DNA from: a virus
Taxonomy: Duplodnaviria > Caudoviricetes
DNA length: 64,000 nucleotides
Virus record (IMG/VR): IMGVR_UViG_3300032246_000346
Span: 1,823-65,822 of that record
Direction: 5' to 3' (one strand)
In this document: positions 51,120 to 52,892 of the stretch, piece by piece
Numbering within the stretch: position 1 is the first letter of the stretch
Layout of the letters: each line of letters begins with the position of its first letter
Translations under genes and position numbers: made by a program
Notes under the pieces: model-generated
Database searches by the model: none
What the model saw: the letters and a program-made list of their open reading frames with translations, nothing else
Told to the model about the DNA's origin: nothing

Positions 51120-51605
51120 TTATTGTGTACCGAATGATGAGCGATCATCAGGTTGGATGTATAAGACAGTAACAAAACCTGTACCTGCTGTAGGTTGACC
51201 TACTGAAGTAACTGTAGCAACAATTGTAGAAACAGAACTTTGAGTTGTCGTTTGAGCAGATACATCTACTGGAGTAGCTTGCATGTTTGTTAATTGTGTT
51301 GTTGTAAATGTAGGTGTTGTACGACCTGATGTCTTAGCATTTACACCTGATGCATATTCTGTACCACCAGAAGTTTTACCAACTGTTAATGTAGCTGAAG
51401 TAGCTGAATCATATGCAGTGATAATATCAATAACAATGTTAAGAATTTTACAGCCTGATGGGATATAAAATGTAGCATTTTGAGTTAATGTAGCATTAAA
51501 TGTAATAGGCACTTGTTGTGTTAAAACAGTTGTACCTACGTTAAAATATGGAGCATAGCGGTTAGTACCAGATTTAATTGGGCCGCTAAAGGTGGATCTT
51601 GACAT
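51120..51605 (-). CDS. Virion structural protein (M.RSTFSGP..SG family)
   Basis: 161 aa; AAGGA RBS. Confidence 0.7.
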   Translation of the reverse strand: MSRSTFSGPIKSGTNRYAPYFNVGTTVLTQQVPITFNATLTQNATFYIPSGCKILNIVIDIITAYDSATSATLTVGKTSGGTEYASGVNAKTSGRTTPTFTTTQLTNMQATPVDVSAQTTTQSSVSTIVATVTSVGQPTAGTGFVTVLYIQPDDRSSFGTQ

Positions 51606-51721: not shown

Positions 51722-51733
51722 GTAATTATTATT

Positions 51734-51755
51734 AAAAAAGGGGCCGAAGCCCCTT
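51734..51755 (-). terminator. Rho-independent terminator after pqqA
   Basis: - strand AAGGGGC-TTCG-GCCCC-TTTTTT. Confidence 0.9.
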
Positions 51756-51761
51756 AGTTTA

Positions 51762-51839
51762 TTACTTATTCATAACGTACATAGTTACTTCAAAGCCAAA
51801 TCTCATTTCAGTTGCTGCTGGTTTAGACCATGATTTCAT
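51762..51839 (-). CDS. pqqA: Pyrroloquinoline quinone precursor peptide PqqA (25 aa)
   Basis: Manual translation MKSWSKPAATEMRFGFEVTMYVMNK: W-x-x-P...R-x-GFEVT-x-Y with the E-x3-Y pair; AGGAG RBS upstream. Confidence 0.93.
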   Translation of the reverse strand: MKSWSKPAATEMRFGFEVTMYVMNK

Positions 51840-51922
51840 ATTATTCTCCTAAAATTTATACACACCATGTGTATAGTTGTCAATATATTACTTTTTTGAC
51901 TTTAATTCTTACGTAAAACCAT

Positions 51923-51955
51923 GAAAAAAGGGCCTGCGTTTTAAGCAAGCCCCTT
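51923..51955 (-). terminator. Rho-independent terminator after major capsid gene
   Basis: - strand GGGCTTGC-TTAAAAC-GCAGGCCC-TTTTTT. Confidence 0.8.
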
Positions 51956-51977: not shown

Positions 51978-52892
51978 TTAAGCGCCTTGTGAACCCCACA
52001 TACCGAGAGGATCTGACCAACCGAATGAATAACGTTCACGAGCTTTGTAACGTACATTGCCTGTGTCGAAGTCACCATCCATAGAAGTAGTTAATGGTGC
52101 ACGAACAAAGTGTTTAAGTCCGTTAGGTACATCAGTAACTAAGAAGTATGCATTTGTATCAGTCAAGAAGTGATTGATTGCATAACCTTCTGGGATAGAA
52201 CCATTGTTCTTCAATGCATTGATATCGTTGTCAGTAGTACCAACACGAAGTTCAGTTTCGAGCAAACGAGTTGCAACGAATTGTAATGCAGGTGGAACAA
52301 TAAGTTTCTTAGGTTTAGCAGCAATTAAAAGACCACGCTCATCAGTCCAAGCTGCGATTTGAATAACTGCATTTTCCAATGAAGTTTCATTCAAGTCAGC
52401 TGCTGTTGATTGAGTGTTGCTGTTTGTACCGCCAGTAACAAGAGGATGGTTAGTAGCAAACAATGGCACACCGTCACCGCCGTAATAAGCAGCAGAGTTA
52501 GTGAAACCGTTGTTAAGTACGTTTGCAGCCTTAACTTGTTTTGTGTAAGCCATACCGCGAGCAAGTGCTTTAGTGTAGCGTGATGATAAAGTGTCATACA
52601 AGTTATCTTCAATTGCTTCTTCAGTTAAGCTGAAGCCTAAAGCGATTGTTTCGTGGTTGTATCGAGCTGTCCAAGCTTCTTGAGCATTGTCGTAAGCGAT
52701 GGCATTGCCTTCGTTTTTAACAGGTGCTGCAGAGAAACCAGAAAGCTTTGTTTCTTCTTCGAAGCTACGTTCTGAAGTTTCAGTTTCGTAGATTTCTTTG
52801 TGCTCTTCGCCGTAACGTTTGTATTCGAGACCGAATAGCGCATTAAGACCAGGTAAGAGCTCTTTTAGTAGCTGAGCGCGTGAAATAGCCAT
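51978..52892 (-). CDS. Major capsid protein (HK97 fold, Mu gpT-like family)
   Basis: ISRAQL.KEL.PGLNALFG.EY, S.RSFEE, EEAIEDNLY, DFDTGN.RYKARERYSFG.SD; strong RBS. Confidence 0.9.
   Translation of the reverse strand: MAISRAQLLKELLPGLNALFGLEYKRYGEEHKEIYETETSERSFEEETKLSGFSAAPVKNEGNAIAYDNAQEAWTARYNHETIALGFSLTEEAIEDNLYDTLSSRYTKALARGMAYTKQVKAANVLNNGFTNSAAYYGGDGVPLFATNHPLVTGGTNSNTQSTAADLNETSLENAVIQIAAWTDERGLLIAAKPKKLIVPPALQFVATRLLETELRVGTTDNDINALKNNGSIPEGYAINHFLTDTNAYFLVTDVPNGLKHFVRAPLTTSMDGDFDTGNVRYKARERYSFGWSDPLGMWGSQGA

Follow-up and report, generated by a model that had tools for sequence, protein, structure and literature searches.

A pqqA gene behind the major capsid gene of a complete phage genome

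The window analyzed here, a stretch of 64,000 nucleotides, comprises bases 1823-65822 of a 65,822-bp IMG/VR virus record (IMGVR_UViG_3300032246_000346), the completeness of which was given as 100% by CheckV. On the minus strand, at 51762..51839, lies an open reading frame of 25 codons plus stop with an ATG start, which was assigned to pqqA on the basis of the ORF list and of two HMMs that scored it above their cut-offs. The original prediction had described a 25-amino-acid ORF below the cutoff of its ORF track, had identified it as pqqA and had named searches with TIGR02107 and PF08042 as a check. The same peptide was listed at these coordinates, and both models recognized it, with scores of 39.3 bits for PF08042 (Pfam PqqA; cut-off, 21.1) and 39.2 bits for TIGR02107 (NCBIfam; cut-off, 20), the latter match covering model positions 1-21 of 21. 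The open frame between stop codons is just 28 codons long and therefore cannot represent the tail of a longer gene. The peptide contains W4-S-K-P7 in its leader and the cross-link residues E17 and Y21 at the spacing E-x3-Y. Its N-terminus reads M-K-S-W-S, while the usual host start is M-W-T. This ORF is a genuine, intact pqqA gene. Among solved structures in the Protein Data Bank, no match for the pqqA region was found at E <= 10, and the only Rfam match to the region, RsaF, was dismissed as chance, since its 18 bits fall below the gathering score of 60.

The gene occupies a 372-bp intergenic space among minus-strand late genes. Directly upstream of the pqqA unit is the major capsid protein gene (51978..52892, minus strand), which matches the major head protein family phrog_371 with an E value of 3e-23, in agreement with the placement first proposed. 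The other edge of the space is formed by the next late gene (51120..51605, minus strand), which encodes a 161-aa protein without an assigned family. The order of the minus-strand late genes is large terminase, portal, a GroES-like gene, three conserved genes, major capsid, pqqA, the 161-aa gene and an 869-aa virion protein, and the early region on the plus strand includes DNA polymerase A, an SNF2 helicase and a DUF927 primase-like gene. Thus, pqqA is a host-type metabolic gene in a bona fide viral genome, with capsid, portal, terminase and virion proteins on both sides of it. No tRNA was found within the window.

Profile searches of the whole 65,822-bp record detected no pqqB, pqqC, pqqD or pqqE and no PQQ_2 dehydrogenase at E <= 1, so that the lack of pqqB-E first noted for the window extends to the entire record. 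The pqqC model, when checked on Methylophilaceae host genomes, was positive in 5/5, and it gave 0 matches in 14 control genomes. Among annotated capsids of cultured phages, those nearest to the window capsid belong to MinM2/Pag-Yong1 (72% identical) and Pelagibacter phage HTVC023P (66% identical). The order of the genes flanking the capsid is the same in the window, HTVC023P and Pag-Yong1. HTVC023P and Pag-Yong1 have no pqqA at this position, and the space between their capsid gene and the next gene measures 154 bp and 104 bp, respectively, as compared to 372 bp in the window.

The pqqA unit is bounded by terminators and has a structured leader

A Shine-Dalgarno sequence, AGGAG, was read at 51846..51850 on the minus strand, 6 nt 5' of the pqqA ATG, as had been noted. 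Two terminators had been proposed to bracket the gene, at 51923-51955 and 51734-51755, and both were recovered by RNA folding and by a separate terminator scan. The intrinsic terminator of pqqA itself (51731..51755, minus strand) consists of a 7-bp G+C-rich stem (51755..51738) with a 4-nt loop, followed by a T run, and was also detected by the consensus scan. The terminator behind the capsid gene (51924..51955, minus strand) has a 10-bp stem that includes one G-T pair, a 7-nt loop and a T run; although seen in the fold and in the separate scan, it is absent from the list of the consensus scan.

RNA folding further revealed a leader hairpin at 51857..51875 (minus strand), with an 8-bp stem and a 3-nt loop, which ends 17 nt before the pqqA ATG. 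A stem of at least 5 bp within -58..-10 was present in 20/20 syntenic units, as compared to 5.9 expected from shuffles, and the stems of these units differ in sequence and are too unlike to align. Leaders were more stably folded than shuffled sequences, with a mean z of -1.37 for viral units and -1.16 for bacterial units. The ribosome site was kept in 194 of 196 unique viral pqqA units, and an own terminator was present in 84 of the 196, versus 2 in shuffled sequence.

The spacer between the capsid terminator and the leader hairpin (51876..51923, minus strand), examined in the sequence and by comparison with relatives, contains a -10-like TAATAT at 51890..51885 and a TTGACA at 51883..51878. 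A -10-like box is frequent a few bases 5' of the leader hairpin in relatives and constitutes a putative promoter; the consensus scan listed no promoter between the capsid terminator and the pqqA ORF. The layout suggests a transcript that would run from the 5' stem-loop to the terminator, a design that would give a stable short message, and the leader hairpin may act as a 5' stabilizer of this short transcript. Read-through transcription of pqqA from the capsid gene is equally possible. A search for sequencing runs that contain this stretch listed 20 DNA runs and no RNA run.

Two additional features of the spacer were observed. At 51855-51883 (minus strand), the TTGACA is followed, after a 17-nt spacer, by a TATAAA, and the whole arrangement overlaps the leader hairpin; it is nearly reproduced in the contig L090 and is absent from other relatives, and a transcript initiated here would have hardly any leader ahead of the ribosome site. 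Right after the capsid terminator, at 51910-51924 (minus strand), there is a conserved stretch of approximately C-A-T-G-R-T-T-T-T-M-Y-G-T-A, which has a matching stretch at the same place in the pqqA-carrying contigs L090, L058, L042, L084, L105, L106, L050 and L075. We considered it as a dispersed late-promoter motif and rejected this idea, because the 15-nt stretch occurs as a single exact copy in the window; allowing up to 3 mismatches, there were 3 matches versus 2.96 expected. This stretch may be part of the inserted cassette.

Lone pqqA genes are the normal arrangement in Methylophilaceae

Bacterial copies were sought with the back-translated motif E-M-R-F-G-F-E-V-T-M-Y in one genome per species, which yielded at least 120 loci. 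The source labels of 91 of the 120 listed loci name Methylophilaceae, Methylophilales, OM43 or their genera, and 25 give a higher rank only; the remaining 4 are metagenome-assembled genomes with other names, namely Acidovorax caeni (twice), Rhodocyclaceae and Pseudomonadales. The two commonest chromosomal PqqA variants, which account for 48 and 26 of the 128 bacterial copies listed, are identical to the window peptide over residues 6-25. A likeness to Methylophilaceae PqqA, which had been suggested, was thus borne out. With residues 6-25 being those of host PqqA, the window peptide may be accepted by PqqD and PqqE and converted to PQQ.

In five Methylophilaceae genomes, we counted 3, 7, 5, 6 and 5 dispersed pqqA copies and one pqqC each; in the genome of Ca. 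Methylopumilus, each of the 3 copies is more than 100 kb from pqqC. Genes pqqB-E were nearby in 27 of the 120 listed bacterial loci and in none of the other 93, and 98 of 112 unique bacterial pqqA units have their own terminator. These counts are in line with those in the available part of one report, which gives 3-12 pqqA copies per genome for Methylophilaceae (PMC4109929), and the accessible text of another describes an orphan pqqA copy of Hyphomicrobium as highly expressed (PMC9851590). A lone, terminator-closed pqqA is the normal arrangement of the precursor gene in these hosts, and host enzymes must therefore act on PqqA in trans. Linkage to pqqB-E, which is typical of pqqA but not defining in Methylophilaceae, is lacking in the phage.

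The G+C content of the window is 36.6%, similar to that of the Ca. Methylopumilus universalis locus (34.4%) and of the locus in an OM43 single-cell genome (34.9%), while ten other Methylophilaceae loci have values of 42-59%. As weak evidence, this fits a streamlined planktonic member of the family. A methylotrophic host such as Methylopumilus or OM43 had been proposed; the likeness of the peptide and, weakly, the G+C content favor this host at the level of the family rather than of the genus.

Phages of methylotrophs carry pqqA in several families

A tblastn search of 50,697 GenBank phage records with the window peptide matched 13 records. Nine of these are phages isolated on Methylophilales or Methylophilaceae, namely Venkman, P19250A, MEP301, MEP401, MEP402 and four Melnitz records; these nine are not all of the cultured methylophages, as the taxonomy also names MEP431-434, HIM624-A, phiMB624-A and Venkman EXVC038S. 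No paper on MEP431-434 was found in the literature. The other matches were the uncultured podovirus MW202481, two contigs labeled 'Acinetobacter phage MD-2021a' and one chance match (E = 10). A full-length pqqA ORF was present in seven phage loci (P19250A, Venkman, MEP301, MEP401, MEP402, Melnitz-1 and MW202481), and an identical tblastn match of 22 residues was obtained for the three other Melnitz records.

Most of the matched phage records have no annotation at pqqA. In P19250A, an unannotated full-length pqqA is found between the annotated genes 0029 and 0030 (L002; KX815270.1:28085-28150). The plus-strand pqqA of the myovirus Melnitz-1 (L007; MZ577095.1:74888-74953) is flanked by a hypothetical gene and a tRNA-Leu, and the record annotates an opposite-strand 'hypothetical protein' across the same bases. 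The 'Acinetobacter phage MD-2021a' records were rejected as phage carriers of pqqA: CAKLQF020000010.1 bears a chromosome-like pqqBCDE operon and ppk. Its locus (L009; CAKLQF020000010.1:105207-111263), which contains ppk and the full pqqA-B-C-D-E operon, looks like a bacterial chromosome deposited under a phage name or like a prophage record that includes long flanking stretches of host DNA; the second record is CAKLQH020000055.1.

Uncultured viruses were searched in IMG/VR with a degenerate G-F-E-V-T-M-Y pattern, which matched at least 120 stretches, and then with a sub-pattern of it (11 of the first 120 matches). All 120 matches listed in the first scan and all 109 new contigs listed in the second contained PqqA ORFs, which brings the pqqA-bearing contigs to at least 229 distinct ones. 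An extrapolation to more than 1,000 viral carriers presumes that the first 120 IMG/VR matches are a random sample. Within the flanking DNA examined, pqqB-E were found in 0 of the 229 listed contigs, with L009 as the positive control.

In one capsid lineage, pqqA is an accessory insert that follows G+C content

Among the 229 listed pqqA-bearing contigs, 21 encode a capsid at least 74% identical to that of the window. The pqqA gene of all 21 is downstream of the capsid gene and shares its strand, with a distance of about 85-303 nt in 15 of them. The converse search of IMG/VR with the capsid protein gave at least 600 stretches, the best 80 of which were 85-94% identical. With at least 400 nt of downstream sequence considered, pqqA was found in only 2 of 69 closest relatives from these best 80 and was absent from the remaining 67. 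PF08042 had no match anywhere in four of four relatives with a completeness of 99-100% (62-67 kb) or in one fragment, while the same search recovered the pqqA of the window. In most non-carriers, about 43-195 nt separate the capsid gene from the following ORF of at least 80 aa, as compared to a median of 392 nt in 12 carriers. These results show that pqqA is an accessory insert in the HTVC023P-like capsid lineage and not a lineage-wide trait, which is new here.

The carriers and non-carriers differ in base composition and are clustered on the capsid tree; because carriers were found via pqqA and non-carriers via the capsid, the two sets were differently ascertained in both of these comparisons. 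Median G+C was 39.1% in carriers (n = 15) and 49.4% in non-carriers (n = 67), with a Mann-Whitney p of 6e-8 on rows that are not independent, and only 3 of the 67 non-carriers had a G+C content below 42%. Approximately 6 changes of the carrier state were required on a tree of 95 capsid rows, versus a mean of 14.0 in shuffles, and none of 500 shuffles gave a value as low; at least 2 changes are forced by well-supported branches, many forks of the tree being unresolved. It is the low-G+C members of the capsid lineage that carry the pqqA cassette, the distribution of which tracks host type rather than capsid lineage.

We also observed that the capsids of the IMG/VR relatives L363-L441 are 85-94% identical even though the G+C content of these contigs spans 39%-59%. 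An unusually conserved capsid module is therefore common to phages of evidently very different-G+C hosts.

Viral pqqA sequences diverge mainly at synonymous sites

The 110 viral copies of 23 codons comprise 101 unique nucleotide sequences. Entropy in these copies was 0.85 at the third codon position versus 0.28 and 0.24 at the first two, and pN/pS was 0.27 when calculated over the 15 codons that the search pattern left free. The 20 copies that accompany the capsid type of the window all differ in nucleotides, with a pS of 0.50, a pN of 0.09 and a pN/pS of 0.18, and E11-Y21 is invariant in these 20 syntenic copies. Only one nucleotide sequence was common to the 101 viral and 106 bacterial unique sequences. 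The best bacterial match to the window pqqA DNA was 88% identical over 69 nt, as compared to 94% for viral copies with the same capsid type. Together, these values point to purifying selection on viral pqqA, and they argue against both an attachment-site remnant and a decaying passenger. Part of the low pN/pS could nevertheless reflect selection that acted in hosts before repeated capture and not in phages.

A proposed role in supplying the PQQ precursor

We consider it probable that the gene is a functional pqqA captured from a Methylophilaceae host, which an HTVC023P-like phage carries behind its capsid gene as a self-contained 'moron' and which serves as an auxiliary gene supplying the consumed precursor of PQQ. 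The identity and intactness of the gene, its host-type sequence, the lack of the enzymes in the phage, purifying selection and the accessory distribution that follows low G+C are observations, whereas expression, processing of the peptide by host enzymes and a benefit to the phage are inferred. According to this model, pqqA would be transcribed during infection as a short, hairpin-bounded message and translated from its strong ribosome site. The 25-aa peptide would then be taken up by PqqD, PqqE, PqqB and PqqC of the host, none of which is encoded by the phage, and each peptide would give rise to one molecule of PQQ, the cofactor of periplasmic methanol dehydrogenase. The phage would in this way keep up or raise the supply of the sole consumed component of the pathway, and methanol-derived energy would be sustained while host transcription fades. 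PQQ is a cofactor and not a consumed substrate in methanol oxidation, and therefore the need for new synthesis within one infection is an assumption of the model. Further points against the model are that only 84 of the 196 unique viral units have an own terminator and that the N-terminus of the peptide, M-K-S-W-S, departs from the usual M-W-T.

It is conceivable, although unlikely, that the gene is a neutral hitch-hiker, which would be picked up frequently by illegitimate recombination, because hosts carry many dispersed, hairpin-flanked units, and would persist temporarily without benefit to the phage. Such an origin would be consistent with the 3-7 mostly stand-alone copies in hosts, with the absence of pqqA from 67 of the 69 listed close capsid relatives and from the four complete ones, and with the approximately 6 state changes on the capsid tree. 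However, the same tree shows that carriage is clustered, with 6 changes versus a mean of 14.0 in shuffles and none of 500 shuffles as low, and carriage tracks low G+C. In addition, a passenger without function would not be expected to combine nucleotide differences among all 20 syntenic copies with an invariant E11-Y21 and a pN/pS of 0.18, or to retain a ribosome site in 194 of 196 viral units, and the nine cultured methylophage records found, which belong to several families, all contain pqqA. The retention of the start codon, the ribosome site (in the same 194 of 196 unique units) and the stop likewise makes it scarcely credible that pqqA-like DNA is kept as a recombination or attachment site, that is, as homology for integration into host pqqA in the manner of tRNA genes. 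The gene is indeed of the size of a tRNA, and recombinases are encoded nearby in P19250A, MEP301, Venkman and MW202481. The complete genome described here, in contrast, contains no tyrosine integrase (PF00589), the homology to bacterial DNA does not exceed 88% over 69 nt, and viral and bacterial copies, with a single sequence in common between the 101 and 106 unique ones, diverge mainly at third codon positions.

The two other alternatives concern the peptide itself. As a decoy or inhibitor, it might bind PqqD/PqqE unproductively, or drain S-adenosylmethionine, and so stop PQQ synthesis in the host. The variable N-terminal leader, M-K-S-W-S, is unlike the host consensus M-W-T, as might be expected of a decoy, but residues 6-25, including both cross-link residues, are those of the host peptide, and 21 and 17 of the 120 viral copies listed in the first IMG/VR scan are identical to host peptides over their full length. 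Moreover, a lower energy supply in the infected cell would bring no evident gain, and we regard this alternative as very unlikely. We give equally little credence to a PqqA peptide with a role other than in PQQ synthesis, such as signaling or serving a different modifying enzyme as its substrate, since the phage genome has no radical-SAM or PqqD-like gene and the peptide has the sequence of the precursor from which the host itself makes PQQ. The supply of PQQ precursor thus appears to be the probable function of the gene.

Relation to known systems and wider implications

The autonomous units that are found inserted between the late genes of phages are known as 'morons'. The window unit resembles them in having a terminator on each side, in occupying a gap that is 104-154 bp in cultured relatives and in being absent from most close relatives, where presence and absence alternate between the same flanking genes. 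It differs in that its own promoter is putative, being suggested by -10-like boxes 5' of the leader hairpin in relatives. In cyanophages, psbA, which encodes the D1 protein, provides a fast-turnover part of a host energy pathway, the rest of which is provided by the host. The proposed role of pqqA is similar in that the phage would supply a fast-turnover or consumed component and lean on the host for the remainder. However, D1 is a structural protein of the reaction center, whereas the window gene encodes a ribosomal peptide that is itself destroyed when the small-molecule cofactor is formed from it.

Compared with the orphan pqqA units of Methylophilaceae chromosomes, the window unit encodes the same peptide from residue 6 and shares the single-gene layout, the ribosome site, the structured leader and the own terminator. 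It differs in its location between the capsid gene and a virion gene, in its N-terminus (M-K-S-W-S) and in its DNA sequence, which is 88% identical to the nearest bacterial copy. The cultured methylophages P19250A, Venkman, MEP301, MEP401, MEP402 and Melnitz likewise carry an intact PqqA of 23-24 codons with E-M-R-F-G-F-E-V-T-M-Y and without pqqB-E nearby. In contrast to the window, they belong to other families and have pqqA in the early or recombination region, near tRNAs (Melnitz) or at the genome end, and no cultured methylophage with pqqA has the capsid type of the window.

PqqA was reported in 2020 for the viral population VP_266 from Lake Baikal (Coutinho et al., Microbiome 8:163, PMC7678222). 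In the available part of that report, VP_266, similar to the phage described here, is predicted to infect Methylophilaceae, and its pqqA is interpreted as an auxiliary gene by which methanol oxidation is boosted; VP_266 differs in being T4-like and in also encoding a methanol dehydrogenase (PMC7678222). The present phage is a 65.8-kb HTVC023P-like virus, in which pqqA was the sole gene found among the PQQ and methanol-oxidation genes searched. The same portion of the report states that P19250A encodes none of these methylotrophy auxiliary genes (PMC7678222), a statement contradicted, as it stands there, by the unannotated full-length pqqA of this phage. According to the accessible text of a 2026 paper, virus-encoded pqqA, pqqE and pqqD are among phosphate-solubilization genes (PMC13188868). 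The main texts describing Venkman, MEP301, MEP401/402 and Melnitz, supplements apart, make no mention of pqq as a phage gene, and PQQ is named in the Melnitz paper solely as a medium supplement; the published medium for OM43 has a PQQ concentration of 1 nM. A general pattern of stand-alone phage pqqA was not found in the literature searched, which was available in part and the supplements of which may list such genes. Thus, viral pqqA is already in print, and what is new here is its status as an accessory insert in the HTVC023P-like lineage, the carriers of which have a low G+C content. The window also gives a clear view of the hairpin-bounded layout of a single-gene unit.

A broader proposal, to which we give slightly less than even weight, is that a stand-alone pqqA, which tracks the host and has been gained repeatedly, is a hallmark of the phages that infect PQQ-dependent methylotrophs; it would occur as a self-contained, hairpin-bounded cassette in unrelated families and, within one capsid lineage, almost only in low-G+C members. 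If so, the supply of precursor peptide, and not enzyme capacity, would be what fails first in the methylotrophic energy metabolism of an infected cell, and a pqqA of 23-25 codons would be a practical marker for linking uncultured phages to Methylophilaceae. Members of this family (OM43 and LD28/Methylopumilus) are major consumers of methanol in seas and lakes, and if a phage gene sustains their supply of PQQ, viral infection would be tied to C1 turnover. With both carriers and non-carriers in it, the capsid lineage provides a natural experiment on whether an auxiliary gene follows the host. Gene callers miss pqqA because of its small size; the gene is skipped and mostly unannotated in the GenBank records of methylophages, and censuses of viral auxiliary genes therefore undercount it.

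A second type of PqqA ([23 protein letters not shown] and near variants; [15 protein letters not shown]...) was observed in the IMG/VR contigs L032 (5945-6016) and L026 and also in L012, L021, L036, L288 and L321. A pattern search for its bacterial owner gave no match among 401 genomes sampled from the class of G001. The capsids of L032 and L026 are 78-80% identical to that of the window, and their second-type pqqA is located between coding regions, at a distance of 1.4-1.9 kb downstream from the capsid gene. If stand-alone pqqA is indeed a hallmark that tracks the host, this second type would mark a different PQQ-making host for L032 and L026.
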